A DNA stretch of 64,000 nt from Escherichia phage vB_EcoM_Goslar (NC_048170.1), one strand, 5' to 3'; positions 2,471 through 60,150 are shown, numbered from the stretch's first letter. The notes: generated by a model not told the origin, from the letters alone. Numbers and translations are program-made.

Positions 2471-2887
2471 TTACTTAGCAGCAGGAAATTCCGGCCAATC
2501 GATATTTGGTGCAGCATCGGTATCGACAGCCGACACCGCGTCAACGTAATCCAAAACGGCGTTAAGTCGGGTCGTTTCTTCCGGAGTCAGTTTTCGCCCA
2601 GCCCGTAATTTTAACTGAATAAGATCGATGGAAGCCAGCGAAGAATCAATCAAAGATTGTTTTATCTGTTCTGCCTCGGCGACAAGTTCTTCGTGTTGCC
2701 GCTCGGGTTCCGGAGGCGCGATAAACTCGCCGTTTGAGTATAACCAACCTATTCCAGGTGACACAGCTGCCGTATCGCTAATGCTAACCAGCTGCTGATT
2801 GTCGAATATATCGAGCTCTGCTTCACCATCGTAAACAATCGTGTTTACTACCACTCCATTTTCAATAACAGCGTATAATGTACTCAT
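2471..2887 (-). CDS. tail fiber assembly protein (Tfa-type chaperone)
   Basis: C-terminus ...LNAVLDYVDAVSAVDTDAAPNIDWPEFP resembles the conserved C-terminal motif of lambda Tfa / Mu U-type tail fiber assembly proteins; start chosen at ATG 2887 (MSTLYAVIENG) forming TAATG overlap with fiber stop; ORF track gives 2471..2911. Confidence 0.7.
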   Translation of the reverse strand: MSTLYAVIENGVVVNTIVYDGEAELDIFDNQQLVSISDTAAVSPGIGWLYSNGEFIAPPEPERQHEELVAEAEQIKQSLIDSSLASIDLIQLKLRAGRKLTPEETTRLNAVLDYVDAVSAVDTDAAPNIDWPEFPAAK

Positions 2888-5800
2888 TACATAAACTCCT
2901 CGATGATGCAAATCCCATTAGCACCACGCCCACCAGGCTTAGCGGTTCCTGAGTAAGAGTTATCGTAAGCACCACCACCACCCGAACCAGGCGCGAGGCC
3001 GTTATGGGCGGTGCCAACACCAGCGCGACCGCCACCGCCCCAATATGACGCACCCCCACATCCACCGACGGCAATAGTACCGGCTTGTCCATCGCTACCG
3101 TCTCCGCCCGGAATGCGTATATCCCCGGTAGCAGGTGCGCCCCCATAGCCACCGCCAGTGTTTGTGACAGTTGTTTTTCCTGCGCCTTGCCCGCCGGGAG
3201 CAGTTAGCAGGGATGCAAATTTACTATCCCCACCCCCGTTCCCAGACGTCGCCCCAGAGCCACCGGAACCACCAGAACCAATTATAACAGAATAACTAGC
3301 AGCTGTTACCGTTATAACCGAAATTACTGTTCCGCCAGCTCCTCCCCCAGCACCAAAAAACGTTTCGCTGTTGGAATAAGCCTGACAGCCACCGCCGCCA
3401 CCGCCGCCACCGGTTATTGTTACTCTAATCCGTTTTGTTCCTTGTGTTGGAGTGTACGTCCCTGACGATGTGAAAACACGCATGTTCAGTAAACGTCCGA
3501 CATATCCGCTAGAATCGGCTAAACCAAGATCTTTAGCTGCTAACGTGATATTAGCTGTACCATCGAAAGGTTTACCGTTAATCGTGCGCGCAGTTTGCAA
3601 CTTCGTCGCCGTGGCTGCGTTCCCTGATGTATTCTGGTTCCCCGCGACGTTAACACCTGGTAGATTGATGTTCGCACTACCGTCGAAAGACACCCCACCA
3701 ATGGTGCGGGCTGTTTTCAGTTTTGTCGCCGTGGCGGCATTCCCCGTAGTGTCTTGGTTTCCTGCTGCGTTAACACCCGGCAGACTGATATTTGCCGTAC
3801 CATCGAACGCGACACCGCCAATCGTCCTTGCCGTTTGTAGTTTTGTCGCCGTGGCGGCATTACCGGTTGTGCTTTGGTTACCGGTGGTGTTTACCCCAGG
3901 TAGGCTGATATTTGCTGTTCCGTCAAATGAAACGCCGCCAATCGTCCTTGCCGTTTGCAACTTCGTTGCGGATGCCGCGTTCCCCGTGGTGTTTTGGTTA
4001 CCTGTTGCATTCACACCAGGGATACTATCCTTAGATGTATAGATCTGTGCCCATTCCGACCAATTCGAATCGGCTGCATCCCGACGAGAACGAAGATAGG
4101 CTGGCGCATGCGCCCCCGATGTACCAGACCATCCAATAAGGATCTCACCTTCACCTACTGCGGTTGCGCCTTTAAGATGAATAATATTGCCGTACGCTGT
4201 AGGGTATCCGTTATTGTACGCTTCATACATCTGGATACCCGTATTGCTACCCTGGGTCGCATTAGCTAAAGCGGTGACCCGTCCCTTGGAAGCGAGCACG
4301 TTAATGCTAAAGCTAATATCAGTTGTACCGTCAAAGGCGACCCCATTAATCCTCCGTGCCGTTTGGAGTTTCGTGGCAGTAGCCGCATTACCAGAAGTGC
4401 TCTGGTTACCCGCTTTGTTCACACCCGGTAAATCAATGTTGGCAGTCCCATCAAACGACACACCCCCTATGGTTCTCGCCGTCTGGAGTTTTGTTGCTGA
4501 ACCGGCGTTTCCGGAAGTGCTTTGATTGCCCGCGGCGTTGACACCAGGTAGGTTAATGCTAGCAGAACCATCAAAAGAAACTCCACCGATCGTAATGGTC
4601 GTTTGCAACTTCGTGGCTGTCGCAGCGTTACCCGTCGTATTCTGATTACCAGCTGCATTGACGCCAGGTAATGCGATATCAGTTGTACCGTCAAAAGCGA
4701 CACCACCGATTTTACGGGCGGTCTGTAGCTTGGTTGCGCTTCCTGCGTTTCCGCTGGTGTCTTGGTTTCCTGCAGCGTTAACACCCGGTAGACTGATGCT
4801 GACCGAACCATCGAAACTCACACCACCGATCGTAACAGCGGTTTTCAATTTCGTGGCAGTAGCTGCGTTACCGGTTGTATTTTGATTGCCTGTCGCATTA
4901 ACGCCCGGTAATGCAATATCCGCTGTTCCGTCAAAGGCAACGCCACCGATTCTACGTGCAGTTTGTAGCTTGGTCGCTGTAGCGGCATTACCGCTGGTAT
5001 TTTGCGTGCCTGCTTTATTTACACCGGGAAGATCGATGTTAGCAGAACCGTCGAAGCTAACGCCACCTATCGTTCTTGCCGTAGCAAGTTTAGCTGCTGT
5101 AGCAGCGGCGTTACCGACTTTTAACCATTCGCCCCATGGACCATCCTGGCCGTTCCATGATGCCGTTAAACTACGTACGTAAATATTGCCGGTACGTACA
5201 GTGTAACGTTGTGTTCCACCGAATTGCCCGGTTGGGAGCACTTCAATGTAACCTGCGGCGTTTGCTTCAGGGAAATTGTGGGCGACGTCCGCGTTCGTCG
5301 TTATTGGTTTAGACCAAATACCCACAGATGCTTCGACTGGACCGAAGGTATTCAGATTTGCGTCCGTCGCCATAGCACCATTAAATTTCAGGTACGTCTC
5401 TGGCGATAATCCGATCGTTTTAGCAAACGCAACTTTATCTACGATATCACTACCGTTATTCCCTGCCTGCAATGCTGTCTTAGCTGCCTTTATGGTTTCT
5501 GTCAATCCAAGATACAGTAAGACCGCATCAACGCTTCCTTTGCTTAGCAGATTCAGACCTGTTGACGTTACGTTAGTTAGCCCGATTTGGTTCCGTCCAG
5601 TAAAATAAGGGAGTTTATTCGCATCTGTTGTTAGGTTAGACCACGCGGTCAGCAACGCGTTCAACGGTTGTTTACCCGCCAACGCATTGGTTACTGTCGT
5701 TGCGAAATTAGGATCGTTCCCTAAAGCTTGAGCCAGCTCATTAAGCGTATTTAGCGCTTCTGGAGACGAGTCGATCAGCGATGCGATAGCACGCATCACA

Positions 5801-6861
5801 AATTCCGTGTTGGCAATCTGTCGACTGCTATCGTTCTCTGCAGCCGTAGGCGCTGCCGGGATACCGGTGAACACAGGGCTATTAAGATCTGCCTTGAGAG
5901 CGATGAGACGTTTAAGTGCGTCGACATCGACTTTCAGGTTTTCCCATCCGATGAGAGAACCACCACTGGCGTTATGATAACGGTTGTACCAGAAGTCGCC
6001 GTTAACGCCAAAAAAGAATATACCTTTCTCTTCGTATTGTGGGCCAGAACTATTTCGTGATGTTTCGATATATTTGATTTCAATAAGACCGCTAAACACC
6101 ACTCCTGGGATTATATTGTTGTTTCCAGCTGACTGTGATACCTGGTAAATCCCCGGGGTTGCGGCTTTAACCCATGTTAAGAATTCTGTTACTCCAGCGG
6201 CACCGCTAAAATTCTTAACGTCGGTAAGTATCGCCCCATAACCGAACATACCGGGTAGAGCCACTCGTTCGCTGGTACGGTCACGAATATCTGTCGCAAC
6301 AACGGGCAATTGTTTACGAACAGCATTAACCGCTTTAGGCGTGGCCGATTTTGTCTCGTCGTCGCTATCGGTTTCATTACTTAGAATAGTTAAACCGCGT
6401 GTAGCAGTAGTTGCATCAGGAAGAAATGCGTTATCCAACACCTTAAGCTGTATTGCACTCGTATTACTAACAACGACATGCACCTGACAGTTAAGAACGC
6501 TGGTTGCGCCTTCGGCAGGCGTAGGCTTATATCTTTCTGGCGCACTGCAGACGGCAATCAGAACACCTTGGTCATCATACAGACCGATCTCACGTACCCA
6601 GAACCCACCTTGACCAGCGGGAATAATACCCTCAACGATAATCCTGGTTGTGCTATCACCATCCGCATGGATATTAGAAACTTCCCCACGATAAACTTCG
6701 TGAACAAGCGCTGTTTGGCTGGCGGTCGGGGTTGGGATCGAGCCGTTACCATCACCAACGGCAAAGTGTGTGATTTTTAGTTTCTCACCGTCGGGAAGTA
6801 ACGCAGCGGTGATACGTTCTGCTCCTTTATCGGTAACTACCGTTATATATGCTGTACTCAT
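2887..6861 (-). CDS. tail fiber protein (1324 aa): P2 gpH-like N-terminal domain, about 11 tandem 40-aa fiber repeats, glycine-rich C-terminal region
   Basis: N-terminus MSTAYITVVTDKGAERITAALLPDGEKLKITHFAVGDGNGSIP...GGFWVREIGLYDDQGVLIAV resembles P2 gpH N-terminus; repeats of the form TARTIGGVSFDGSANIDLPGVNxAGNQNTxGNAATATKLQ; C-terminal GGGGGGGG and GxGG runs. Confidence 0.85.
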   Translation of the reverse strand: MSTAYITVVTDKGAERITAALLPDGEKLKITHFAVGDGNGSIPTPTASQTALVHEVYRGEVSNIHADGDSTTRIIVEGIIPAGQGGFWVREIGLYDDQGVLIAVCSAPERYKPTPAEGATSVLNCQVHVVVSNTSAIQLKVLDNAFLPDATTATRGLTILSNETDSDDETKSATPKAVNAVRKQLPVVATDIRDRTSERVALPGMFGYGAILTDVKNFSGAAGVTEFLTWVKAATPGIYQVSQSAGNNNIIPGVVFSGLIEIKYIETSRNSSGPQYEEKGIFFFGVNGDFWYNRYHNASGGSLIGWENLKVDVDALKRLIALKADLNSPVFTGIPAAPTAAENDSSRQIANTEFVMRAIASLIDSSPEALNTLNELAQALGNDPNFATTVTNALAGKQPLNALLTAWSNLTTDANKLPYFTGRNQIGLTNVTSTGLNLLSKGSVDAVLLYLGLTETIKAAKTALQAGNNGSDIVDKVAFAKTIGLSPETYLKFNGAMATDANLNTFGPVEASVGIWSKPITTNADVAHNFPEANAAGYIEVLPTGQFGGTQRYTVRTGNIYVRSLTASWNGQDGPWGEWLKVGNAAATAAKLATARTIGGVSFDGSANIDLPGVNKAGTQNTSGNAATATKLQTARRIGGVAFDGTADIALPGVNATGNQNTTGNAATATKLKTAVTIGGVSFDGSVSISLPGVNAAGNQDTSGNAGSATKLQTARKIGGVAFDGTTDIALPGVNAAGNQNTTGNAATATKLQTTITIGGVSFDGSASINLPGVNAAGNQSTSGNAGSATKLQTARTIGGVSFDGTANIDLPGVNKAGNQSTSGNAATATKLQTARRINGVAFDGTTDISFSINVLASKGRVTALANATQGSNTGIQMYEAYNNGYPTAYGNIIHLKGATAVGEGEILIGWSGTSGAHAPAYLRSRRDAADSNWSEWAQIYTSKDSIPGVNATGNQNTTGNAASATKLQTARTIGGVSFDGTANISLPGVNTTGNQSTTGNAATATKLQTARTIGGVAFDGTANISLPGVNAAGNQDTTGNAATATKLKTARTIGGVSFDGSANINLPGVNVAGNQNTSGNAATATKLQTARTINGKPFDGTANITLAAKDLGLADSSGYVGRLLNMRVFTSSGTYTPTQGTKRIRVTITGGGGGGGGCQAYSNSETFFGAGGGAGGTVISVITVTAASYSVIIGSGGSGGSGATSGNGGGDSKFASLLTAPGGQGAGKTTVTNTGGGYGGAPATGDIRIPGGDGSDGQAGTIAVGGCGGASYWGGGGRAGVGTAHNGLAPGSGGGGAYDNSYSGTAKPGGRGANGICIIEEFM
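3520..4030. repeat. tandem approx 120-nt coding repeats (array 1, about 4 units) inside tail fiber gene
   Basis: Recurring ttgtcgccgtggcggcattccc... units at about 3600, 3720, 3840, 3960. Confidence 0.7.
4290..5110. repeat. tandem approx 120-nt coding repeats (array 2, about 7 units) inside tail fiber gene
   Basis: Recurring units at about 4370, 4490, 4610, 4730, 4850, 4970, 5090; separated from array 1 by a non-repeat insert. Confidence 0.7.
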
Positions 6862-19654: not shown

Positions 19655-20253
19655 TACTTAGGTTCCAGTGTTGGTCCGAACAACCAGAATGTCAGACGCT
19701 GGTAAACCTGTTCGATGACTGCGGCTTCTGTTTGCTCTTCTAGTGCTTTCCCTTTCTTATGTTGTATTTCTGGCGGGATGTCGCCGTTGTAAACATACTC
19801 TGTTGAGAAGTCCCACGCCAGCCGTTTACCGAAAGTGGGTAAGAACACCTCTTCGAATCGGAACGCTTTCGAATTCCAATGAAGCAGCTGATCGGATTCA
19901 ACATGTAAAGCTTTATTACGTTTGCTTGGCATGTTTCCGAAGTACTGAACGATAGCTGATTTCATAACCTGATCTGCGAAGTCTTTGGCTTCGGCCTCAT
20001 CGAGGGGAGGCAGACGATGCGACAGATTCAGCTTGCGTTGCTCAACATCGATCTTACGCATTGCTTTAATCAAATCACCAGGAACGATTTTACCCTTATG
20101 GCCTTCCTGTCGATGTACGAAACACCCCTGGAATAGCACGCAAAGTTCTTGAGGTGCGGTACTTTCCATTCGTCCGTAAGCAACGATCACCGATCGACGA
20201 CGATCGATAACTTCACGGATAAACCGCGGCTCAGTAATACTCACCACTGTCAT
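19654..20253 (-). CDS. hypothetical protein (199 aa)
   Basis: ORF track. Confidence 0.5.
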   Translation of the reverse strand: MTVVSITEPRFIREVIDRRRSVIVAYGRMESTAPQELCVLFQGCFVHRQEGHKGKIVPGDLIKAMRKIDVEQRKLNLSHRLPPLDEAEAKDFADQVMKSAIVQYFGNMPSKRNKALHVESDQLLHWNSKAFRFEEVFLPTFGKRLAWDFSTEYVYNGDIPPEIQHKKGKALEEQTEAAVIEQVYQRLTFWLFGPTLEPK

Positions 20254-20297
20254 TTAAAGCCCTCTTTATCTTTTTCCATTTCTCTTTACATAACCAC

Positions 20298-20984
20298 TTA
20301 AGACGTTGCCATCTTACCTTCCAGAGACTTCTTCGGTAAACCATGGATAACTCCTTCCGGGGTTAAGAACACACAGTCTGGATTCTGCGTTCGTGAACGG
20401 TCTTCTGGACTGTTCAACGAGAACAACAACGCAGAAATACCTTTTGTCCGATTTAACGTTGCGACGATCACATCAAGCTGCCGTAGCGCATCCGATACGG
20501 TTCGATGTGGAACGATTCGCGACTGTTTGAAGCTGGCTAACCGCCAAGTCTCGAACAAACAACGCAGTTTAAACACGTCGGACGGAATAGCTGTAGATCC
20601 CTGTTCGATAACCTCAACCCGATCAGCTTCAGGATAACCTACAGCAACCGCACTAAAGTGTCTTACCCCATTATGAAAATCATCGATAGACGCTTCAGCG
20701 TATTTACATACCGTACCAGAAACGACCATCACTTTTGCTAAACCGCGATAATTGATCGTTAACGGAATACGAAATACACGTAAAGCATGTTCCGGATTTA
20801 ATGAGACGTCATTCACTTTCGCAGATACCAGCGCACCTCGTTCATATCGAGCTTTGAACGGCAGCCCATTATAAACGGGATTGATCACAACGCCCCCTGG
20901 GGAGGCGTTAGCGTTAAGATGAGTGTTAAGCCAATCGGATACTTCCTGTCTGCTGGTTACGATCAACATAAAACGGTCCTCCAT
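20298..20984 (-). CDS. hypothetical protein (start uncertain)
   Basis: ORF track 20298..21104 overlaps upstream gene; internal Met (MEDRFMLIV) chosen. Confidence 0.45.
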   Translation of the reverse strand: MEDRFMLIVTSRQEVSDWLNTHLNANASPGGVVINPVYNGLPFKARYERGALVSAKVNDVSLNPEHALRVFRIPLTINYRGLAKVMVVSGTVCKYAEASIDDFHNGVRHFSAVAVGYPEADRVEVIEQGSTAIPSDVFKLRCLFETWRLASFKQSRIVPHRTVSDALRQLDVIVATLNRTKGISALLFSLNSPEDRSRTQNPDCVFLTPEGVIHGLPKKSLEGKMATS

Positions 20985-20994
20985 TTCTTTTCCT

Positions 20995-21645
20995 TCATTC
21001 ATGACGCATATCTTCCAAATCATCCTTTTGTTTTGTAAATTCTGATTGCTTGCGATAAACCGTCCATAAGTCGTATATACCGTGAAAGTTAAGATGGCGC
21101 GCATTTAAGTTAACGGTGAATTCTTCCACAGAGGCAAAATCCGAACGAAGCATCGAATGGAAGGTGTCATCTCCAGTGCAGCCTCCGTATCCTTCACCCT
21201 GATAGACCAAAAGCTGGTGAGGTTGGATACGTGCGGCAACCAATGCAGCTTGTGGTTCGTCGTAAGGCGGCCACGACAGTAGAATAACGTCGTACTGTGA
21301 AAGATCGATGTTTGTGTAGTCGGCTTGCTGGATATCATCAATAAACGGATGGGGATGTATTGCGGTGTCGTACGCGGTAACGTCCTCAACACCAAGTTTA
21401 CGTAACACGTAAGTCAGATAACCTGTCCCACAACCCAAGTCAGCGATGCGTCGTCCGTAACAGATGTTCGCTAACTGGAGCGCGGTATCCATGGTTAACA
21501 ACGACCATCCGATGTGCTGAGTGTATTCTTCACGCATATCCCATTGTTGTCGATACGGCATCGGTTCTAAGATAGCAGCAAGCTGCTGGTACGGCAACGG
21601 CATTTTGGTTTCGCCTTGCGTGAGTAATGCGATAACATCGTTCAT
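20995..21645 (-). CDS. class I SAM-dependent methyltransferase-like protein
   Basis: Motif I IADLGCGTG, acidic VTAYD, later SWPPY (atypical xPPY); start at ATG 21645 preceded by AAGGAAA; ORF track start 21693 would run through hairpin. Confidence 0.55.
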   Translation of the reverse strand: MNDVIALLTQGETKMPLPYQQLAAILEPMPYRQQWDMREEYTQHIGWSLLTMDTALQLANICYGRRIADLGCGTGYLTYVLRKLGVEDVTAYDTAIHPHPFIDDIQQADYTNIDLSQYDVILLSWPPYDEPQAALVAARIQPHQLLVYQGEGYGGCTGDDTFHSMLRSDFASVEEFTVNLNARHLNFHGIYDLWTVYRKQSEFTKQKDDLEDMRHE

Positions 21646-21660
21646 TTTGTTTCCTTTTAT

Positions 21661-21688
21661 CGGCATAAGCCCTCCCATGCCGGGAGGG
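21661..21688 (-). terminator. hairpin CCCTCCC-atgcc-GGGAGGG downstream of 21694..22122
   Basis: Inverted repeat 21670..21688; weak U-tract (CUUAUGCC) on minus strand. Confidence 0.45.
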
Positions 21689-21693
21689 TACAA

Positions 21694-22122
21694 TTATTCA
21701 TTTTCAATAACTTTAAGATTCGGTGTACCGAGCGTTTTCTTCACCAACGCTTCGGCAACACGTTTCTCGATGAAATCGGTTGCATTGCTTCCGTCTATCG
21801 TACGCATATCGCCACGGAAATTGCTGAAGACCATAAACAAGTCACAACCATCGATAGGTATCGCAAGATCATAACTGACTTGTGATGCTGTGAAATGGAC
21901 ACCCACGACAACGGCGGGAACGAATTTAACCGCTATGTTATCTCCTTCTTCTCCGGTTCCGAACGGAAGCTCAACACGATCACCGATAGAGAACTGTGAG
22001 ACATCATTAATCGCGTGAGTTAGTGCGATTCGTTGCATGTCGGCGATCTTTTCCTTATTCGCGTCGCAAGGTAGGTCCAAGACTTCTTCCAACGTGAAGA
22101 ATTTACGATCGAACCAGCTCAT
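21694..22122 (-). CDS. hypothetical protein (142 aa)
   Basis: ORF track. Confidence 0.5.
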   Translation of the reverse strand: MSWFDRKFFTLEEVLDLPCDANKEKIADMQRIALTHAINDVSQFSIGDRVELPFGTGEEGDNIAVKFVPAVVVGVHFTASQVSYDLAIPIDGCDLFMVFSNFRGDMRTIDGSNATDFIEKRVAEALVKKTLGTPNLKVIENE

Positions 22123-22123
22123 G

Positions 22124-22657
22124 TTAAGCTCCTTTGTGTTTTACGGACGATGTTAACCAGGACGATCTTACCGTGAAACCCTCAGACTCGTAGAACGCCT
22201 GGGCTTCGTCGTTATCAGCACGAACATCCAGACCGATAGAATGACCACCGCATCGGTAAGCGATGTTACGTGCTTCATTCATCAAGGCGTGGCCGATCCC
22301 GCGTCCACGGTATTCCGGTTTTACAATAATCGATGTAACATCGTGAATACCCATATGGCTCTCTGTATTCACTTCCAAGAGACCCACTGGTACTGAAGCG
22401 ATAGCATCGATCATAACGACCAACTTTGCGGTGTCTGGTAAACGCTTTTCTAATTCTAAAGCATCGTACTCGCGTTTTAAATCGGGGATATTCTCAAACA
22501 TAAACGTGGTAGCCCATGCCTCTGATTCTACATCGTCGAGAATACGGTACAGCTCACGAATCTGTCGTTTATGTGGGTAAAGGTGTGGATCGGCAGCCGT
22601 TGAGGCGATAACGCAATAGAACGGTCGTTCATTAATAACTACTGTTTTGATGCTCAT
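22124..22657 (-). CDS. GNAT family N-acetyltransferase
   Basis: Motif A ...IVKPEYRGRGIGHALM... and motif B ...AQAFYESEGF... Confidence 0.7.
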   Translation of the reverse strand: MSIKTVVINERPFYCVIASTAADPHLYPHKRQIRELYRILDDVESEAWATTFMFENIPDLKREYDALELEKRLPDTAKLVVMIDAIASVPVGLLEVNTESHMGIHDVTSIIVKPEYRGRGIGHALMNEARNIAYRCGGHSIGLDVRADNDEAQAFYESEGFTVRSSWLTSSVKHKGA

Positions 22658-23160
22658 GCTAAAATTCCCTCATTACCTAACAGTCGATTACGATGACGTC
22701 GGTACATTTGACAAAGTGTTGTGATTTGATAATGTTTGTTGTAACGTACCTCGATACGTTTTTGCACCTCTTTCCATGGAAGTTTATCGTATTGCCGATA
22801 ACGATGGATTTCATTTAACATACGAAGACGAGTAGGATCGGTGTTCTTTATCGTCGTGAGCTTCACACGTTGATATCCACGCTGTAGTCCCGATTCGGAA
22901 TACGTGACGTCAAACTCATCTTGAATGATGGTAATGATCTCCCGCCACCGACGGTTCTCGCCGTCACGTAAATGGACAACCCGTGATAAGATATCGTTCC
23001 GATTACGATGACTCAGTTTAATGTTAAGCATTGAAGCAATCGCGCTAATTGCTCTCTGACTCCGTCCTAACGCTTCACCTATTTCTTTCGATGTCATGAC
23101 GCCCGCGTTTCGGCGTATGAATGCGATTTCGGTTGTTGTGTATTCTTTACCTGCTGCCAT
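22654..23160 (-). CDS. HTH-like repeat protein, tandem paralog 6 of 6
   Basis: Module YTTTEIAFIRRN...SKEIGEALGRSQRAIS plus C-terminal W-x-EV...Q-YRR module shared with paralogs. Confidence 0.5.
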   Translation of the reverse strand: MAAGKEYTTTEIAFIRRNAGVMTSKEIGEALGRSQRAISAIASMLNIKLSHRNRNDILSRVVHLRDGENRRWREIITIIQDEFDVTYSESGLQRGYQRVKLTTIKNTDPTRLRMLNEIHRYRQYDKLPWKEVQKRIEVRYNKHYQITTLCQMYRRHRNRLLGNEGILA

Positions 23161-23624
23161 TTCTTACCACGTGTGTTATAATAGTAACGCTGACAAAGAT
23201 GTGTGTGATGGTACTCCCGTTTGAACTCGACGCTGATAATGCGAGCAACTTCTCTCCAGTTAACTCCTTCATGCCGGAGTGCTGTAATACGGTCTGAAAT
23301 TTTGCACCATTCATCTGGATCGTATCGTCGTAGCTTGAGTCGTCGTATTACGGAGGCGACACTCGCTCTCGATCGGCCAAGATGATTTGACAGTTGTTTA
23401 ACCGAGTATCTGTGGATATTGTCACGAATATAGGAAATCTCGTTGTTCGTATATGCCTCATTGGTTCTCGACGAAGGGAACAGCATATACAACTTATTCT
23501 TAATCGCGCTTTCTGTGCGTTGAAATACAGAAGCCAGCTCACTAACCGGTGGTCTGGGTATCTGGTCCGCGTAATTCTCGAGGCGTGAGAGTTCCTCATC
23601 TGTCCAGCGACGGTATTTGCGCAC
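23094..23624 (-). CDS. HTH-like repeat protein, tandem paralog 5 of 6
   Basis: RRWTDEELSRLENY...SELASVFQRTESAIKNK and second module YTNNEISYIRDN...VKQLSNHLGRSRASV; start proposed at GTG 23624 preceded by AAAGGAG (ORF track 23094..23726). Confidence 0.5.
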   Translation of the reverse strand: MRKYRRWTDEELSRLENYADQIPRPPVSELASVFQRTESAIKNKLYMLFPSSRTNEAYTNNEISYIRDNIHRYSVKQLSNHLGRSRASVASVIRRLKLRRYDPDEWCKISDRITALRHEGVNWREVARIISVEFKREYHHTHLCQRYYYNTRGKKWQQVKNTQQPKSHSYAETRAS

Positions 23625-24099
23625 GGGCAACTCCTTTGTTTTTCGTGTAGTAACACCAACGTTGATACAACGCATGTTTATTCGTCGTAATCCCAAATTT
23701 AACAACAACGTCGTATGTGATAACATTCCAATTTTGGGTAACGTTAAGTCGTTCCGCGATAAACGCGATAATCGCTTCCCGTTCTTGCTTTGTTAACGCA
23801 CGACGAATTCCATTAAGCCGTATAAACTGACGAACCGAGTCATACGAACGGTTTAAATCGTACGCAATCTCCCTCAACGATTTTTGTTTGATTACGGACT
23901 TGATGTACGCGCGTTCTTCTTCCGTATACGGTCGATGCTTTTGGCGTTGACGTATTCCCAAACGTCCCAGACGCGCGTCGATGCTGGCGCGTGTTCGTCC
24001 TGTCCGTTGTGCGATTTCATCAATCGTCAGCGACGTGTTCAAGTACAGGTGTATAACATCTTTTAACTCATCGTTACGCCACGGCCGAGGTCGTCCCAT
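23596..24099 (-). CDS. HTH-like repeat protein, tandem paralog 4 of 6
   Basis: PWRNDELKDVIHLY...IDEIAQRTGRTRASIDARL; YTEEERAYIKSV...LREIAYDLNRSYDSVRQ; C-terminal NW...FGITTNKHALYQRW. Confidence 0.55.
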   Translation of the reverse strand: MGRPRPWRNDELKDVIHLYLNTSLTIDEIAQRTGRTRASIDARLGRLGIRQRQKHRPYTEEERAYIKSVIKQKSLREIAYDLNRSYDSVRQFIRLNGIRRALTKQEREAIIAFIAERLNVTQNWNVITYDVVVKFGITTNKHALYQRWCYYTKNKGVARAQIPSLDR

Positions 24100-24577
24100 C
24101 TTGTATCCCTCTTTTCTTTCTATGATGCCACCAACGCTGATAAACAGCCTGCTTCGTACGTGTTATACCGAAATGCGCATTAACCCGTTCAGCAATGTGG
24201 TGCCAATCCTGTGTTTCTTCTAACAATGTATCAACGAAGGCTATGAAGATCTTAGTATCATCCTCGCTTAACCGCTTGAAACCATGACGGTGTGCTATCG
24301 TTCTAATACTGTTTGGATCCCTGTTTAAATCGCGTGCGAGTTGTTTGTAACTTTTGTGTTTGCAGTGCACTCTGATATATTCCAACTCATCGACACTGAA
24401 ACGTTTATGCGGTTTACGACGTTCAACATTTAAGTATATCAACCTCGATTTAATTGCACCGTACGTTGTTTCCATGATTTCTGCGATTTCACGGATTTTT
24501 AATTTCGGGTGACGATAGTACAATTCCAGCAACTGTTCATCATCCTTACGATTCCATCGTCGTACTGGAGGTTTCAC
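24074..24577 (-). CDS. HTH-like repeat protein, tandem paralog 3 of 6
   Basis: RRWNRKDDEQLLELY...IREIAEIMETTYGAIKSRL; FSVDELEYIRVH...YKQLARDLNRDPNSIR; C-terminal DW...FGITRTKQAVYQRW. Confidence 0.55.
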   Translation of the reverse strand: MKPPVRRWNRKDDEQLLELYYRHPKLKIREIAEIMETTYGAIKSRLIYLNVERRKPHKRFSVDELEYIRVHCKHKSYKQLARDLNRDPNSIRTIAHRHGFKRLSEDDTKIFIAFVDTLLEETQDWHHIAERVNAHFGITRTKQAVYQRWWHHRKKRGIQDGTTSAVA

Positions 24578-24590
24578 AACGAGATTTCTC

Positions 24591-25058
24591 CTATTCTACG
24601 CGTTTTAATGCTTGAGTGTAGTAGAGGGCATGAACACCGCTTAACGTGTAATGGGTGTTAAATTCGTTATTGATGATATTCTGTATTCTCTTCCAGGTGT
24701 TATTCTCTTTTCTAAGGGTGTGTATTCGATGATAGATCATCTCTCGACGTTGCGCTTTGCATGCAACAATACCGTAACGGTAGCAGAGTTTAGCGATTGC
24801 GTCCACGCTACGGTTGAACATCGCTGCAGCTTCTTTCACGCTATGTGTCTTAAGATAATCGGCTAACATCACACGTTCTTCGAAACAACAATAGCGGTGA
24901 CGCGACATGAGTTTCCAGCGCTTGCGATTGCGGTTAATTCGACCTTGAACAGAGCCTTCGGTTCGGTCAAGCCGTGCCGCAATCTCTTGCATCGGGATAC
25001 CGTTTCGGTACAGGGTAATCAATATCGCGTCTTCTTCGGGTGTCCAGTCCTTGACCAT
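24591..25058 (-). CDS. HTH-like repeat protein, tandem paralog 2 of 6
   Basis: KDWTPEEDAILITLY...MQEIAARLDRTEGSVQGRI; second module ...VKEAAAMFNRSVDAIAK. Confidence 0.55.
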   Translation of the reverse strand: MVKDWTPEEDAILITLYRNGIPMQEIAARLDRTEGSVQGRINRNRKRWKLMSRHRYCCFEERVMLADYLKTHSVKEAAAMFNRSVDAIAKLCYRYGIVACKAQRREMIYHRIHTLRKENNTWKRIQNIINNEFNTHYTLSGVHALYYTQALKRVE

Positions 25059-25070
25059 AGCGCCACCCCA

Positions 25071-25391
25071 TCAACGTCTTACTTTAAGCGTTATCTTGTT
25101 TCGAAAACAATAACACCGGATGGCGTGTACGCTACGATTCATTATTTCAGCAATCTCTTTTAGCGTATGTTTCTTTGCAAGCGTGGCAACCCTAACCCTT
25201 TCTTCTGGCGTGTATACTCCCCCGCGAGGTGGTAGATCACCCCATCGTTTCCTCAACTTGAGGTAACGTGCGCGAATAGAGCACGGTGTTCGATTCATGC
25301 TTCGCGCTACTTCTTTATAGCTCGCTTTTGGTGATGTACTAAGAATAAGCAGCAACGTTTCATCTTCTTTATCTGTCCAACGTTTACCCAT
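25071..25391 (-). CDS. HTH-like repeat protein, tandem paralog 1 of 6 (two modules only)
   Basis: KRWTDKEDETLLLIL...YKEVARSMNRTPCSIRARY; YTPEERVRVATL...LKEIAEIMNRSVHAIR. Confidence 0.55.
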   Translation of the reverse strand: MGKRWTDKEDETLLLILSTSPKASYKEVARSMNRTPCSIRARYLKLRKRWGDLPPRGGVYTPEERVRVATLAKKHTLKEIAEIMNRSVHAIRCYCFRNKITLKVRR

Positions 25392-25395
25392 TTTC

Positions 25396-28473
<3,078 letters not shown>

Positions 28474-51953: not shown

Positions 51954-53528
51954 TTACAATTCAAAATCTTCATCGATAACACGCTGGGTAAGCACCTTGT
52001 CGCTGAAGAACTCCACCTTGCGCTGATGGTATTTACGGTGCGCTTCGATAGATGTACATACCAGATACCAGAACGTTGGTGTCATTCCTTCGAACTTCCC
52101 TTTCAGCTGACGTAGGCGTCCCAATACCTGAATGTTACCGGTTCGTGACCCCATCGCTAACGTCATGAACGTCATCACCAAGTCAGGGAGGTCGATACCT
52201 GTACCTGCCGATTTCACCGTCGTAACGCTGATATCGTTATCCAACAAGACCATGAAATCTTCTTCAGCAGTATAAGGACCAATCTCTAACTCAGGAATAC
52301 GTTCACTGAGATAATGCGATAACGACTTACACATATCAACGGTTGCACAATACACCAGCATCTTCATGCCTTCCTGATACTGGTTCATGAAACCTTTGAT
52401 GATAACGGTATAGATAAAGTTGAAATAGGCGAGTTTGAGTTGCTTGTTCTTCATGATAGACTGTTCGAATATCGTGTGAGAATAAGAACCCCCAAAGCCT
52501 TTGTATCTGACTTTATCTGTACTGCGTAATCGATACGTTACCGCATTTACCGCAATGTATTTCTTGTATTCGCATTTCGCATAACGTGCTTCTTTCGGAT
52601 ACATCAAATACAACATCCGTTCGATGAACGGATCGTCGGACACTGCCGTTGCTGACAGATAGATGATTTCCGGAATATTCGCGTAACACTTCACTTTGAA
52701 CAAGAAATGCAATGCTTCGTGACATTCATCATGGATTAACAACCCAATGCCTGTTTTCTCCCAGAACTCGACAGGATGGAAAACATAAGGTGCGACACAG
52801 TTGTTCTTTTCATAATCGGTTATGTATCTCTGAAACATGTTCAGCGAGAATAACGCAATTTTGAAATCCAGCTCACCTTGTTCCACCAACGTCTGGAATT
52901 CCAGCATGCTGTAACGAGGAATGTCTGGATGTGGTGGGTCAGATTGAGCTGTGCCACGTATCTCGATAACATCGCCCGGTTCCATACCGAAGAAACTTAG
53001 CAGTGAGCTACGCCAACCAGGCATGTATCTCGGTGACAGGATAATACCCGTCCGTACACCGCGTCGGAAGGTGATCTCCTGCGACATGGCTGTTTTACCA
53101 GACCCCGTGCCTGCGGTGTTTAAGCTCATTCTGAAGGGGGTATCCTTACCCCCGTCCATGTACTCCAACCATTCTTGTTGATCTTCACGCCACGGAAACT
53201 TCCATTTCTTTACGAACTCCACTTCCTTACCTGGCACTGGATCGTGATAAACGATTTCCAACCACTCTTTTCGGATTCCTCGAGAGAAGATAAAATCCAA
53301 AAACGATTTCAACTGTTCGCGGAGTAAGTATACCTCGCTATAATCGCTTCTCGCTGCGGCATACGTGTTTATGGTATCGGTAACCATTCTCCGTGTACGA
53401 GGGTCACGCCGTTTCCTCAGATGCAAACAACGGTCTCGAAGGTAATGGCCGATAAGATGGGCAAATCGAAGTCCGTATCCGCTCAGCCTCATGCCATGCG
53501 AGAAGACGTCGATACGAGCTAACTTCAT
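51954..53528 (-). CDS. superfamily II DExH-box helicase
   Basis: Motif I GTGSGKT, motif II LIHDECHE, motif III LSATAV, motif V AGTGIDLPD, motif VI QVLGRLRQ. Confidence 0.65.
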   Translation of the reverse strand: MKLARIDVFSHGMRLSGYGLRFAHLIGHYLRDRCLHLRKRRDPRTRRMVTDTINTYAAARSDYSEVYLLREQLKSFLDFIFSRGIRKEWLEIVYHDPVPGKEVEFVKKWKFPWREDQQEWLEYMDGGKDTPFRMSLNTAGTGSGKTAMSQEITFRRGVRTGIILSPRYMPGWRSSLLSFFGMEPGDVIEIRGTAQSDPPHPDIPRYSMLEFQTLVEQGELDFKIALFSLNMFQRYITDYEKNNCVAPYVFHPVEFWEKTGIGLLIHDECHEALHFLFKVKCYANIPEIIYLSATAVSDDPFIERMLYLMYPKEARYAKCEYKKYIAVNAVTYRLRSTDKVRYKGFGGSYSHTIFEQSIMKNKQLKLAYFNFIYTVIIKGFMNQYQEGMKMLVYCATVDMCKSLSHYLSERIPELEIGPYTAEEDFMVLLDNDISVTTVKSAGTGIDLPDLVMTFMTLAMGSRTGNIQVLGRLRQLKGKFEGMTPTFWYLVCTSIEAHRKYHQRKVEFFSDKVLTQRVIDEDFEL

Positions 53529-55531
53529 AACGTGATTACATCCTCCGGTTTAGGTTCTTTACGCGGTAAAAGCATGTAGTCGATCGGATGATCCGGCTTC
53601 ATGGTTGGGATATAACTGTTCGGGTTTTGGAACGCATCCAGTTGCTCTTGGTGAGCGAACTTCATACTCAAGGAGCGCATGTTCATGTTCTTCTTGAAGG
53701 TACTGAAGTATCGTGTTGTTCCCTGTTTCGGCATGCGATAATCTTTCGTGTGTGGTGAACGAATCATGCTGGCGTAGAGAATAACATCGAGATGCGAAAG
53801 GTTCATTCGCAGACGCTGGGCACACAGACGATGCCAATAGTACAGCACGTTTGCAACTTCTTCCGGTGTCGCTTCGTCTTCCGAAAGGAATCCGGCACTG
53901 AAAGAACCTTTCCCGAATTTGAATTCACGTTCGATTTCTTTTGCGTATTCCATCATGTTTTTGTGGATTAACGGCATCTGGAATAACGTACGTGAATTGT
54001 CCCAATGTTTCAAGTCGAAAATCACAATCCCGTCAGACGTCACTTCCCAGCTATGGCGTTTAAGATAACGGATAAACGCTTTACTCGGGACAACGGGACG
54101 TCCACAGAAATCGAAATTGACTTTGAGCTTACGGTAGCTTTCATCTTTCCTGTCGTAAATCTCCATATCACAAAGCGTCATGTTAAACAGGCGTTGCGGT
54201 ATCAGCGAACTGATTTCTTCCGCTTCCGCTACATCGTACAACATGTTCGCAAGACCTAACTTCATCTTAATCAGCACGTGTTTACCTTTCAGCTCACGTG
54301 CGAGTTTGATGTCGTTCATATTCTGGCTGTAGCGAAGGATATGTTGATATTCCGGTGGGATTGGTGCTGTGGATACCGTTGACGAACCATCATGGTGTTT
54401 GGTAGAAAGAATGTTCTGCGTTACCTGTTGCGAACAGGTACGCGCTGCGCCATCGCCGACATTATCGGTTAGTGCGAAGTTATGACTTAATTCACCGTAA
54501 CACGTCGTACATACCCCAGCAGGATCGGGATGATGACAATAGTTAACGGAGCGCATACGCACTGTGGTGCCGATCAATTCTTTCATGTGTGGTTGTATCG
54601 CTACCAACGAACCGTCATCGCGAATAATGAATCGACCGTGGAAGCCACGCAGGTCGGTCTCATCACGGATTGGCATCGGGATGGTCTCTTTACTACCACA
54701 ATCTCCAGGATGGAGTCGTTGTACAACCGCTGTCGCTATCTGAAGTTCACGACCGAAATATTCAGACTTCTTGATCTGCTCTTTGTTGAACAGCAACGAC
54801 TTCGCCGCAGAACGACTTTCTTTCAAGCTGTCGGGAAGAGAGATCAAACCTGCCGCGTACGACCGCATTACTGGATCACGGAATATCTCGGAGTTAATAT
54901 CGGTCAAGAATCCACGCATCCCAATACACTGCAGCACCTGCCCAATCGAAACGTGTTCGGTTCGTACCGCACGCGCAATAGGGTTTGCGTGTAACGTTTT
55001 ATCGGTGCTCAGTACCTTGGTCAGTTTCTTGTATGCGCTTTCGATACCTTCACGGGTGGGTTCCGCTTCGGCGATGATTTTCTTAACTTCAGGATGTACG
55101 GTAATCTGATAAAAATCATCCGCGCAAATAGTCGTTACGTATTCCTCCAGCGCATACGTAAAGAAGTTATATACATTGTTAAACATATCGAACAATGCTT
55201 TCCAGAGAACCTCACGATTCTCTTGTGGATAAGCATACATGCATTGACGATACGCGGCGCTTTGCAACGCAACCGACGAACCAGCAGTAAACTTGCGTTT
55301 ATCGACCAGGTTCTCTTTTGTCAATGGTGTCTCAGGATACATGCGATGCACAGACCAGTGCATGTAACTAAAGAAAATGCGTCGCGCACGCAATTCATGA
55401 ACGCCATCGTCCATCTCGATATATACACGGTCATTAGGCTGTGCCCACTCGAATACTTCATCAACCGGCCAGTGCATAAGCTCGCGTGCCCTCACACGAC
55501 GTTTCGTGGTGGTCGTCTGTGTTATAGTCAT
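53525..55531 (-). CDS. multisubunit RNA polymerase beta-prime-like protein (C-terminal half homolog)
   Basis: VRMRSVNYCHHPDPAGVCTTCYGEL...AARTCSQQVTQNILSTKHHDG parallels E. coli beta-prime [22 protein letters not shown]...[22 protein letters not shown]; upstream IGQVLQCIGMRGFL parallels LNVLQYFISTHGAR; no NADFDGD motif, consistent with a split subunit. Confidence 0.55.
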   Translation of the reverse strand: MTITQTTTTKRRVRARELMHWPVDEVFEWAQPNDRVYIEMDDGVHELRARRIFFSYMHWSVHRMYPETPLTKENLVDKRKFTAGSSVALQSAAYRQCMYAYPQENREVLWKALFDMFNNVYNFFTYALEEYVTTICADDFYQITVHPEVKKIIAEAEPTREGIESAYKKLTKVLSTDKTLHANPIARAVRTEHVSIGQVLQCIGMRGFLTDINSEIFRDPVMRSYAAGLISLPDSLKESRSAAKSLLFNKEQIKKSEYFGRELQIATAVVQRLHPGDCGSKETIPMPIRDETDLRGFHGRFIIRDDGSLVAIQPHMKELIGTTVRMRSVNYCHHPDPAGVCTTCYGELSHNFALTDNVGDGAARTCSQQVTQNILSTKHHDGSSTVSTAPIPPEYQHILRYSQNMNDIKLARELKGKHVLIKMKLGLANMLYDVAEAEEISSLIPQRLFNMTLCDMEIYDRKDESYRKLKVNFDFCGRPVVPSKAFIRYLKRHSWEVTSDGIVIFDLKHWDNSRTLFQMPLIHKNMMEYAKEIEREFKFGKGSFSAGFLSEDEATPEEVANVLYYWHRLCAQRLRMNLSHLDVILYASMIRSPHTKDYRMPKQGTTRYFSTFKKNMNMRSLSMKFAHQEQLDAFQNPNSYIPTMKPDHPIDYMLLPRKEPKPEDVITL

Positions 55532-57596: not shown

Positions 57597-59765
57597 TTAG
57601 CTTTCGCAGTCATCTGCGTCGATGATTTGTCCGCCAGCAACGTTCAGCTGATGATACAGAATCCTCAACGCACGGTTGCCACCAATGGGATACTTCTCGA
57701 AGTTGGTTGCAATAGGAATCGCTGACGGCTTATCGGTCGCATAGATACTTTCAGTGATGCTATCCACCTGTTTTGGATTGTTCGCATAATCCATAAAGAC
57801 GCTTGCGAACCATCCGCCAGCAAAGGCGGTAACTTCGCGATGTTCAGATTCGCCACAGTAACGAGTTGGTTGCTCTTTACCCGGAGAACTGTATTTATCG
57901 CTATTACTGAGTTTCGACGGTAATCCATGCGCTTGCAATTTAGGAATACCCACAGCCGACCAATCGTTCGCCGTCTTCTCCAACATCATGATGTACGTGT
58001 CACCGATCGCAATATCGTTCTTGGTTGTCCGCCACTGCCCAGAACGCCCACGGTATCGTACAGGACCTTTCTTCAACGGGAACTCACGAATCAGATTCTC
58101 CATACGTTCTGAACCTGCTGCGATACTGTCCGTCGGGATATAAACTTCCGTACCGTGGCGTTGTACATACCGTAAATGATCCCATTTATCCTCATCCGTG
58201 ATACAGTATTTTTCAACAACCTGTTCCACGAATTCAGGACTGACGATATAGTAGTAACGCATTAGTGTGTTCCAAGCGGTCTCCAGATCGCCTGCATCCA
58301 TCACTGGTTTCAGTTCACGCATGATCTGATCGCCAACACCGTTGATGTAAGGTGCATTAACACGACTTAAACTCATCCTTTTGATTACCGTGCTATCGTC
58401 AAACATAAAGTCTGCAACGTTACCCCATTGGTCAACCGGCATCTCATCATCTTCCATGATGTCGGTTACGACGAATTTATCACCCGCCATACCAGTGAAT
58501 TTAAACCCGATACCTGGAACAACGTCGTACGTGTACGTGATGGTCACACGCCAATCATCGAGATTCTCTTTGCGGTAATCGCGGGTCGGTAACACATGAC
58601 GTAGCTGTCCATTAGGATTGCGGATATCAATACCATGTTCAGCATCAGCCAGGTTCAACCACCACATCACCGTTTGATGATGACGTATCGGCGTACCAAC
58701 GCGTTCACGTTCATACTTACGAACAGCATCCTGAATTCGGGTGTAAAGCAAACCGATTGCGTTCTCGTATTTCAGGAATTGACGATACGGAGGACGCATC
58801 TTCTCTTCCATCATAATCGCACGCTCGCGGGCTTGACGTCCAGAACGACGATGCCGGTCGCTGACAACATCGATATCCGTTACACGCGCATTCGGTTCAG
58901 CGTAAGTGAGGTCATCGTAAACATAATCCACACGCTGAAGATTACACGTCATCATGTCAACAACGCTGAGGATAGGATCTATTTCGCGTGTTGCTGCAAG
59001 TAACCCATCTTTACGAATACGCTCACCGTTCTCGGGTATTGCTTGATATACCTCATCATCGCCGTAGAGATTGATTGGGTATCGCGATTTACCTGATGTG
59101 ATTGTTCGCTTCTCAATGCCGGTACTGGTGAAATGTTTCAATACACCACGACGGGCAACACCACCATCCTCGATACACTGATAGAAGCTACCGAAACACA
59201 CTTTACAATCGCGACCGTAACCCCACTCGCGTGTTTCTTGATTGATCGCTGGGCTTTCCATCAAACGAGAATATCGCGGTACGATCTGGCCTCGACGGAG
59301 GGAATGGAACAAGTTGGTTGGTCGAAAACGGAAACCGTACTGCTGATGCATGATGTGATGCTCAGGCACTTCAAGCAAGCGTAGTTCGTGGCGGTTACCA
59401 TCCTCTTGGTTTTCATACAGCACGTAATGCATCGTGTTTGTTTTGATGCTGTTTGCTGTATGCCCCGGTTGGAAACGTGGGATGATATCTATGATGCGAG
59501 ATTCGACTGGAAACTCTACTGACCAAGTGTTCTGTCCGTACTGGTATTCAATCCCCGTCGTTAGTCGGGACGGTTTCGCATCTTTGATAACCAACGCTTG
59601 GCTAAGATGTCCACCAAACATCGCAGCGCGCTGTGCTGAGTTATAATGCAATAGCCCGTTAAGTCCAGTCCCTACGCCAGTATACTCCTGTTTAATGGGA
59701 ATGATTTTACCTTCAGCGATTGCCTGCTTCACAGATTCATAAAGAGGTTTTTCTTTATAATGCAT
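57597..59765 (-). CDS. multisubunit RNA polymerase beta-like protein (C-terminal half homolog)
   Basis: FKFTGMAGDKFVVTDIMEDDEMPVDQWGNVADFMFDDSTVIKRMSLSRV parallels E. coli beta [47 protein letters not shown]; also YIMMLEK versus YMYMLKL and a C-terminal segment parallel to GQRFGEMEVWALEAYGA; start placed at ATG 59765 preceded by AGGAAG (ORF track 57597..59930). Confidence 0.6.
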   Translation of the reverse strand: MHYKEKPLYESVKQAIAEGKIIPIKQEYTGVGTGLNGLLHYNSAQRAAMFGGHLSQALVIKDAKPSRLTTGIEYQYGQNTWSVEFPVESRIIDIIPRFQPGHTANSIKTNTMHYVLYENQEDGNRHELRLLEVPEHHIMHQQYGFRFRPTNLFHSLRRGQIVPRYSRLMESPAINQETREWGYGRDCKVCFGSFYQCIEDGGVARRGVLKHFTSTGIEKRTITSGKSRYPINLYGDDEVYQAIPENGERIRKDGLLAATREIDPILSVVDMMTCNLQRVDYVYDDLTYAEPNARVTDIDVVSDRHRRSGRQARERAIMMEEKMRPPYRQFLKYENAIGLLYTRIQDAVRKYERERVGTPIRHHQTVMWWLNLADAEHGIDIRNPNGQLRHVLPTRDYRKENLDDWRVTITYTYDVVPGIGFKFTGMAGDKFVVTDIMEDDEMPVDQWGNVADFMFDDSTVIKRMSLSRVNAPYINGVGDQIMRELKPVMDAGDLETAWNTLMRYYYIVSPEFVEQVVEKYCITDEDKWDHLRYVQRHGTEVYIPTDSIAAGSERMENLIREFPLKKGPVRYRGRSGQWRTTKNDIAIGDTYIMMLEKTANDWSAVGIPKLQAHGLPSKLSNSDKYSSPGKEQPTRYCGESEHREVTAFAGGWFASVFMDYANNPKQVDSITESIYATDKPSAIPIATNFEKYPIGGNRALRILYHQLNVAGGQIIDADDCES

Positions 59766-59796
59766 AGGACTTCCTATTATCGAATTGAGGTACGTC

Positions 59797-60150
59797 ATGT
59801 CTAACACGCCCCTGAACGACTTTCTTAAGACAAACCCCGATGACCTCATCCACGATCTTGATTTCAGGAACGTTGTTGAGATGCATCTGGAATATTTCAA
59901 AAATGCCGGACTGGTCTCTACGATAGACATACCACCCGAACGCGCCTACGAATTCGATGGTAACTTTTATGGATTGTGTCGTGTTCTGCTCGGCGAGGGT
60001 AGCGAACCAATGCACTGGATCACCCTGAGACTCAATGGTTATCGCGACCCTACGGAATACACCGCCGATGTTCTAACCATGAAGATTGTCGATACAAGCG
60101 CAATCAACACATTAAAACAACAGTACCGCACAATCCACTACAGCGCTTAA
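59797..60150 (+). CDS. hypothetical protein (117 aa), lone plus-strand gene
   Basis: ORF track 59785..60150; ATG 59797 preceded by GAGG; followed by hairpin. Confidence 0.4.
   Translation: MSNTPLNDFLKTNPDDLIHDLDFRNVVEMHLEYFKNAGLVSTIDIPPERAYEFDGNFYGLCRVLLGEGSEPMHWITLRLNGYRDPTEYTADVLTMKIVDTSAINTLKQQYRTIHYSA

Follow-up and report, generated by a model that had tools for sequence, protein, structure and literature searches.

The 64,000-nucleotide stretch of Escherichia phage vB_EcoM_Goslar (NC_048170.1) analysed here, referred to as the window, carries at positions 20995–22657 three genes, one of which encodes a methyltransferase-like protein of 223 amino acids. This protein is a member of a large, almost exclusively viral, uncharacterised clade of class I S-adenosylmethionine (SAM)-dependent transferases characterised by a WPPY motif and a GCTGDD loop. 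We favour, with moderate confidence, the reading that it is a stand-alone class I SAM-dependent transferase acting on an acceptor other than DNA, more probably a small metabolite or a side chain of a protein. A preliminary description of the sequence had noted a methyltransferase-like protein with an atypical motif IV and an unclear target, together with a GNAT acetyltransferase, and this reading was supported by our analysis.

Homologs were gathered by word-indexed and exhaustive searches, and the exhaustive profile search covered 1.84 billion cluster representatives. The window protein is the first row of an alignment, A1, whose profile retrieves the family, and conservation was counted in a census of 201 family domains. 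The residues G80, D100, W132, P133, G157, E158, G162, C163, G165 and D166 are invariant in A1. The gene and the motifs of its product are located as follows:

20995–21666, minus strand: methyltransferase-fold gene, 223 amino acids, member of the WPPY/GCTGDD viral family (phrog_19090)
21421–21435, minus strand: motif I GCGTG (G78–G82), the SAM-binding glycine loop after beta1; glycines conserved at 92–96%
21367–21369, minus strand: Asp100 at the end of beta2, the motif II acidic residue for the SAM ribose; invariant in A1 and present in 98% of the 201 domains
21262–21273, minus strand: motif IV variant WPPY (W132–Y135), directly after beta4
21166–21198, minus strand: signature loop GEGYGGCTGDD (G157–D167) after beta5; Glu158 conserved at 99% and Cys163 at 96%
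21070–21081, minus strand: GIYD before beta7 (family consensus GIHD); Asp199 conserved at 95%

The canonical motif I and the S-W-P-P-Y sequence previously noted in this open reading frame (ORF), which ends at 20995, were both confirmed. An AlphaFold2 model built from a 33-sequence alignment gave a predicted local distance difference test (pLDDT) value of 88.9 and a predicted template modelling (pTM) score of 0.87, and it showed the expected alternation of strands and helices. The seven-stranded beta-sheet fold is present in this model (beta1 at residues 74–77, beta2 at 96–100 and beta4 at 127–131), motif I is contained in ADLGCGTG at residues 75–82, and the core fold with a helical lid takes up the whole 223-residue chain. 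In profile searches, 13 Pfam methyltransferase models matched residues ~75–140, all under their gathering cutoffs, the best being Methyltransf_23 with 21.8 bits against a cutoff of 27. The 22 NCBIfam matches were also all under their cutoffs, the PADLOC match to 'MTase_II' was weak (20.8 bits), and the PDB sequence search gave the same picture. A family-specific model was sought and not found in Pfam, NCBIfam or PADLOC, where all matches were to general methyltransferase models and below threshold. The protein is without a close solved relative among PDB sequences, and the profile of its C-terminal, substrate-facing half had no match among the solved proteins in PDB (best E=0.85). The next structural matches, in BFVD, were 'methyltransferases' of the Klosneuvirinae. 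On the predicted structure, we regard the assignment of the class I SAM-methyltransferase fold as secure. The preliminary description had made this fold dependent on profile support, and it was upheld by the sub-cutoff Pfam matches and the AlphaFold2 model. The protein is strongly acidic, with an isoelectric point (pI) of 4.84 and a net charge of −14, and the ratio of nonsynonymous to synonymous substitution rates (dN/dS) of its gene, 0.13, indicates purifying selection.

In PHROGs, the window protein matches phrog_19090 (E=1.5e-17), which is labelled 'unknown function'. Two sister sequences (P0001 and P0004) are 89–90% identical to it and score 202–208 bits with the A1 profile. Relatives grouped in phrog_19090 or named 'class I SAM-dependent methyltransferase' in GenBank, among them Aeromonas phage pAEv1810 gp44, a protein of Klebsiella phage Miami, HGTV-1 ORF67 and ORFs of PhiCh1 and phiH, are 24–37% identical over 70–90% of the length and share the same invariant motifs. 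All motifs of the family pattern R(lid)...GxGxGY...D...W-P-x-Y...G-E-x(2-4)-G-C-T-G-D-(D/E)...G-I-H-D are present in the window protein. The conserved positions of the family, from the N- to the C-terminal side, are:

Arg in the N-terminal helical lid, conserved at 92%
GxGxGY (motif I), conserved at 91–96% per position
Asp at the end of beta2, conserved at 98%
W-P-x-Y after beta4, with W at 97%, P at 98% and Y at 93%
G-E after beta5, conserved at 99%
G-C-T of the signature GE-x(2-4)-GCTGD(D/E), with Cys at 96%
F..L, conserved at 92–94%
Asp of GIHD before beta7, conserved at 95%

At these frequencies, the atypical motif IV is not a chance feature of one sequence. Family members are mostly stand-alone proteins of 180–260 amino acids with a median pI of 5.4; an acidic C-terminal helix (residues 209–221 in the window protein) is specific to the lineage formed by the window gene and its metagenomic sisters.

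After beta4, the window protein has the P-P-aromatic sequence of motif IV (P133, P134 and Y135), and the polar D, N or S before PP is replaced by Trp, which stands at this position in 97% of the domains. In classical amino-methyltransferases, this polar residue hydrogen-bonds the exocyclic amino group. The residue preceding Trp, which is Ser in the window protein, varies among C, S, A, V, N and T. The motif IV register is ambiguous: the alignment to Trm5b places the Asn of NLPK opposite the variable S/C. Judged from the sequences, the polar residue of the classical enzymes is absent in either possible register.

The P-P-Y sequence itself invites comparison with enzymes that modify bases, as NPPY, DPPY and NPPF loops stack on a flipped base. 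If WPPY did the same, the protein would be a nucleic-acid base amino-methyltransferase forming m6A, m4C or m2G in phage or host DNA, rRNA or tRNA. We consider this unlikely, because 97% of members have Trp in place of the hydrogen-bonding D/N/S, with no fixed residue ahead of it, because the ~200 residues of these proteins include no target-recognition domain, and because the family is acidic and the window protein gave no match to the Pfam models N6_N4_Mtase, N6_Mtase, MethyltransfD12 and DNA_methylase at E up to 1. Small RNA methyltransferases also usually need basic surfaces or a Trm112-like partner. The target had been left open between DNA, protein and RNA in the preliminary description; this range stands with the qualification that DNA is the least likely of the three for a small, acidic protein without a target-recognition domain.

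Known enzymes with related motifs differ from the family in several respects. The protein-glutamine N5-methyltransferases HemK/PrmC and Mtq2/N6AMT1 carry NPPY, and their Asn that binds the Gln amide corresponds to Trp in the WPPY family. The profile-to-HemK alignment ends at chain residue 187, which, with the NPPY of HemK at residues 183–186, would place Trp on its Asn. The two groups of enzymes have no counterpart to the invariant GE-x3-GCTGDD and GIHD of the family, their sequence similarity to it is not significant (E=0.087), and, unlike them, the WPPY protein has neither a Trm112-type partner nor the HemK N-terminal domain. The RNA methyltransferases Trm14/TrmN (m2G), METTL5/Ta1320 (m6A) and Trm5 (m1G37) have (D/N)PP(F/Y) or NLP motifs, whereas the WPPY family is without the polar first residue; the WPPY protein also lacks THUMP, D1 or another RNA-binding module and has an acidic surface.

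The second conserved element, the loop after beta5, contains Cys163 (96%) and Glu158 (99%). TrmA and RlmD have a PP motif after beta4, their catalytic Cys after beta5 and an acidic base farther along the chain. By comparison with these enzymes, the window protein might use Cys-nucleophile or metal chemistry, that is, pyrimidine C5-methylation of the TrmA/RlmD or NSUN/RsmB-like type, or metal-dependent O-methylation through Glu158, Asp166 and Asp199. This appears distinctly unlikely, as the Cys spacing is unlike that of the pyrimidine-C5 enzymes, the Cys being 5–6 residues farther from beta5 than in the m5U enzymes. The profile alignments to 8z62 and 2jjq end ahead of motif IV, the C-terminal half matches no solved methyltransferase, and the acidic surface speaks against an RNA substrate. 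The m5U enzymes TrmA, RlmD and RlmC have no sequence match to the WPPY protein beyond motifs I–III, and the TRAM and iron-sulfur domains are absent from the latter.

The invariant Cys, Glu and Asp would also suit alternative chemistries, namely a Cys nucleophile as in m5U/m5C enzymes, a metal site, or transfer of another part of SAM. The last of these was considered because nicotianamine synthase and MccD are among the fold matches. It is possible, though we hold this view only tentatively, that the family is virus-specific with non-classical chemistry (candidates being methylation at carbon with the help of Cys163, or the transfer of a different portion of SAM) directed at an acceptor common to bacteria, archaea and eukaryotes, and thus an unrecognised, widespread viral tool for host manipulation or counter-defence. 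An immune signal, a metabolite derived from nucleotides or a translation factor would be examples of such an acceptor.

Motif IV has lost its canonical polar catalytic residue and the SAM-binding motifs are intact, which would also suit a non-catalytic SAM binder, either a sponge or a pseudoenzyme, that lowers free SAM or serves as a scaffold and thereby counters SAM-dependent host defences. Phages are known to target SAM pools, the T3 SAM lyase being an example. We regard this explanation as highly improbable, since the very strong conservation of further residues around the presumed acceptor pocket (W, Y, E, C, D and R) and the dN/dS value fit a substrate-specific active site, and since a stoichiometric sponge is implausible for a metabolite in the millimolar range.

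In the stand-alone transferase that we prefer, SAM would be held by the GCGTG of motif I, by Asp100 as the last residue of beta2 and by the region of beta3, and the acceptor would sit in the canonical pocket above the SAM methyl group. This pocket would be lined by W132-P-P-Y135 as two aromatic walls, by the post-beta5 loop (G-E158-G-Y-G-G-C163-T-G-D-D), by Asp199 of GIYD and by Arg45 of the N-terminal lid. A near-invariant second shell is formed by Arg45, Trp132, Tyr135, Glu158, Cys163, Asp166 and Asp199, and by analogy with class I enzymes these residues probably lie in the elements of the acceptor pocket, namely the lid and the post-beta4, post-beta5 and pre-beta7 loops. One well-defined acceptor may be sandwiched between Trp132 and Tyr135. 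The acceptor is unlikely to be DNA, and with less certainty RNA, because Trp takes the place of D/N/S and the family members are acidic, small and devoid of a recognition domain. It should also be universal, since viruses carrying the family infect hosts from all three domains of life. The protein is presumably catalytically competent, and a role in host takeover or counter-defence can be envisaged. Several points weigh against this reading. A pI above 8 is found in 11% of the family members, so the acidic-pI argument is statistical in nature; with one fusion to a truncated GNAT (P0088) and one to NADAR (P0154), a tie to acyl or ADP-ribose chemistry is conceivable; and the proposed pocket composition is deduced from class I topology.

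The family is large. Profile matches among the cluster representatives numbered 8,621 at E<1e-3, 6,334 at E<1e-10 and 2,463 at E<1e-30. Named members are found in jumbo phages of Aeromonas, Salmonella, Xanthomonas, Klebsiella, Pseudomonas and Stenotrophomonas and in the haloarchaeal viruses PhiCh1, phiH and HGTV-1. In IMG/VR, 55 loci with family members were collected, including a giant-virus metagenome-assembled genome (MAG; L060) bearing both motifs, and many metagenomic members lie on contigs of 100–480 kb. In prokaryotes, a restrictive search pattern applied to 185,579 species (one genome each) found 9 loci, all of them in MAGs. The source names and cluster members gave nothing more specific than 'hypothetical protein' or 'SAM-dependent methyltransferase', and nothing specific to the family was found in the literature on WPPY, on phage methyltransferase counter-defence or on jumbo-phage methyltransferases and acetyltransferases.

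The window gene is a modest accessory gene in its own genome, and the family to which it belongs, with clusters at 50% identity numbering in the thousands, spans viruses of all three domains of life and shows enrichment in jumbo phages. Its active-site signature departs systematically from the (D/N/S)PPY rule used for classifying amino-methyltransferases. The identity of the acceptor could expose a conserved viral target of takeover or counter-defence and a new specificity class of SAM transferases. For annotation, the analysis corrects a gene start, adds a missed gene and advises caution in reading adjacency to GNAT and helix-turn-helix (HTH) genes as an operon-level link.

Unusual architectures were observed in a few members. 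The longest multi-copy protein (P0049) has 1,932 amino acids and four domain copies, and another of 576 amino acids (P0134) has two matched domain stretches. Two long TPR-containing proteins (P0078 and P0084) carry the family domain at the C-terminus, and the NADAR fusion of P0154 is N-terminal. Fusion partners were dropped as a clue to function, since the isolated NADAR and GNAT cases, the two TPR proteins and the multi-copy proteins are too few and too mixed. In L060 (GVMAG-M-3300005613-25, positions 1434–2019), the WPPY half (ORF 1434–1931, 'VVWPPY') and the GEGYGGCTGD half (1939–2019) are in different frames, possibly owing to a frameshift, an intron or an assembly error. In PhiCh1 (L027), an N6_N4 DNA methylase gene (Pfam E=4e-43) is immediately upstream of the family gene (the two genes at 2637–3980 and 4001–4549), and this is the sole examined locus in which a member adjoins a bona fide DNA methyltransferase. 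High-GC members on ~100-kb phage-like contigs (L004/L005, 7239–8750 and 10351–12372) have an N-terminal Cys-rich (CTCGW) extension and adjoin genes for a Ser/Thr protein kinase and a full-length sigma-70.

All sizeable ORFs of the 18–28 kb region of the window are on the minus strand. In order of transcription, from high to low coordinates, the block consists of the NAD-dependent DNA ligase gene, a 244-aa ORF, the six HTH genes, the GNAT gene, a 142-aa ORF (ORF142), the methyltransferase-like gene and two genes without assigned function. The features of the block other than the protein motifs given above are:

26090–28165, minus strand: NAD-dependent DNA ligase gene, first in the block
22654–25391, minus strand: six HTH paralogs, transcribed ahead of the GNAT gene, ORF142 and the methyltransferase-like gene
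22124–22657, minus strand: GNAT N-acetyltransferase gene, 177 amino acids (Pfam Acetyltransf_1, phrog_3810)
22292–22309, minus strand: GNAT motif A RGRGIG (residues 117–122), the acetyl-CoA pyrophosphate-binding loop
21694–22122, minus strand: ORF142, a protein-coding gene of 142 amino acids with no assigned function, recognised by dN/dS and an in-frame indel
21671–21676, minus strand: putative Shine-Dalgarno sequence GGGAGG, 4 nt ahead of the ATG at 21666

The interval would lie distally in a gene block that runs leftward in the genome of a divergent phiKZ-like jumbo phage. The two enzymes had been placed upstream of the HTH array, which is true in plus-strand coordinates only; because the genes are on the minus strand, the enzymes are downstream in transcription. 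Both enzyme genes are present as described, but the interval contains three genes, ORF142 having been overlooked. Plus-strand ORFs within the interval are short and antisense and were dismissed. The listed start of the methyltransferase-like ORF is the TTG at 21693; the most likely start, as read from the sequence, is the ATG at 21666, because a perfect GGGAGG lies 4 nt before it and most close homologs are called at 223 amino acids. The sixth HTH gene and the GNAT gene overlap by ATGA, the GNAT gene and ORF142 are separated by 1 nt, ORF142 and the methyltransferase-like gene by 27 nt containing the Shine-Dalgarno sequence, and the methyltransferase-like gene and the next gene by 10 nt. Promoter- and terminator-like sites in the block were not more frequent than in shuffled sequence, and Rfam and tRNA scans of the whole window were empty.

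Four genes so tightly packed are probably co-transcribed or translationally coupled, and their synteny is kept in a sister contig (IMGVR_UViG_3300011560_000001, 237,533 bp, locus L006), which is fully syntenic with 92% DNA identity over the block. One could thus imagine that the GNAT, ORF142 and the methyltransferase-like enzyme form one pathway in which a single protein or metabolite is acetylated and methylated in succession, perhaps under the control of the HTH proteins; the fusion of a family member to a truncated GNAT in P0088, and a single Mec-17-type GNAT among 110 neighbours, could be read in the same way. We consider such a pathway very unlikely. The synteny in L006 carries little information because of the 92% DNA identity, and homologs of the window GNAT, ORF142 or HTH proteins were found within 4 kb in none of 54 other viral loci (phmmer against the ORFs of L001–L060). 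No GNAT or ORF142 homolog was nearby in any of five context loci, and in those of two further metagenomic members HTH homologs were absent as well. All-versus-all clustering of 322 neighbour ORFs gave groups of closely related phages only, with no recurrent neighbour family, and the Pfam scan of the 110 neighbour ORFs likewise gave no recurrent family. Jumbo phages having both genes keep them ~200 kb apart, as in Serratia phage KpLz_1_41 (MN871447.1, listed host Klebsiella pneumoniae), and the GNAT part of P0088 has motif A alone in common with the window GNAT.

A functional significance of the position next to the HTH array and the GNAT gene was not supported, the arrangement being kept in the sister contig alone. 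The three genes are treated as independent accessory genes, neighbours by chance of lineage, because no conserved neighbours were found beyond this contig. A functional link between GNAT and methyltransferase was rejected, as phmmer, clustering and the Pfam scan showed no recurrent partner. Two further ideas, one on polyamines (SpeG-like GNAT with an aminopropyl-transferase-like fold) and one on Hen1/RNA repair (PNKP/RlaP neighbours at a single locus), were abandoned because the patterns did not recur.

The GNAT assignment was confirmed by Pfam Acetyltransf_1 (E=7e-15, 55.8 bits against a cutoff of 20.7), with Acetyltransf_7 and Acetyltransf_10 likewise above their cutoffs, by phrog_3810 (acetyltransferase) and by motif A; its dN/dS of 0.09 indicates purifying selection. 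The protein falls under every NCBIfam equivalog cutoff, including RimI (TIGR01575, 54.4 bits against 86.4, with residues 105–163 alone matched) and PaiA (36 against 250). The best PDB match is 2ae6, with 2ge3 also among the best, and the solved relatives are uncharacterised GNATs, spermidine/diamine acetyltransferases, YpeA and Ard1, with E values of 1e-7 to 1e-5. The window GNAT shares Acetyltransf_1 and RGRGIG with RimI, SpeG, PaiA and YpeA but is below the equivalog cutoffs, and its acceptor cannot be assigned because identity is at most ~25–30%. Phage homologs, ~25% identical, occur in Moabite-like Serratia phages and Klebsiella jumbo phages. The gene is canonical and unspecific, and its product would move an acetyl group from acetyl-CoA to an amine.

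ORF142 is a real gene, because its dN/dS against the sister contig is 0.11 and a clean in-frame one-codon indel separates the two copies. It had no match in Pfam, PHROGs, NCBIfam or PADLOC; it is acidic, and its only distant homologs are a weak one from Erwinia phage Bue1, with 35% identity (E=3e-4), and one from Yersinia phage CAU_YEP3. The 142-aa product is conserved and has no assigned role.

The six HTH genes reported in the preliminary description are true paralogs by all-vs-all blastp (E down to 1e-27), arranged in tandem and encoding proteins of 106–210 amino acids with double HTH units. Two of them were scanned, and both gave matches to sigma-70 region 4 models as well as to phrog_323 ('transcriptional regulator, D5-like'). 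In the fifth HTH ORF (23094–23726), the start is probably well inside the listed ORF, whose first ~35 residues overlap the previous gene.

The window belongs to a deeply divergent jumbo phage of the phiKZ-like type. At 53525–55531 and 57597–59930 (minus strand; phrog_3015 and phrog_3295), it encodes split beta subunits of a multisubunit RNA polymerase, a hallmark of phiKZ-like jumbo phages, and these are only ~32% identical to their counterparts in such phages. In a megablast search of 50,697 phage records, neither positions 20000–23200 nor the tail-fibre gene had a match, and the phage is accordingly without near relatives in culture. The tail-fibre protein, of 1,324 amino acids (2887–6861, minus strand), has strong multi-repeat matches to PHROG tail-fibre families, with 1061 bits for phrog_6722 over 7 stretches.

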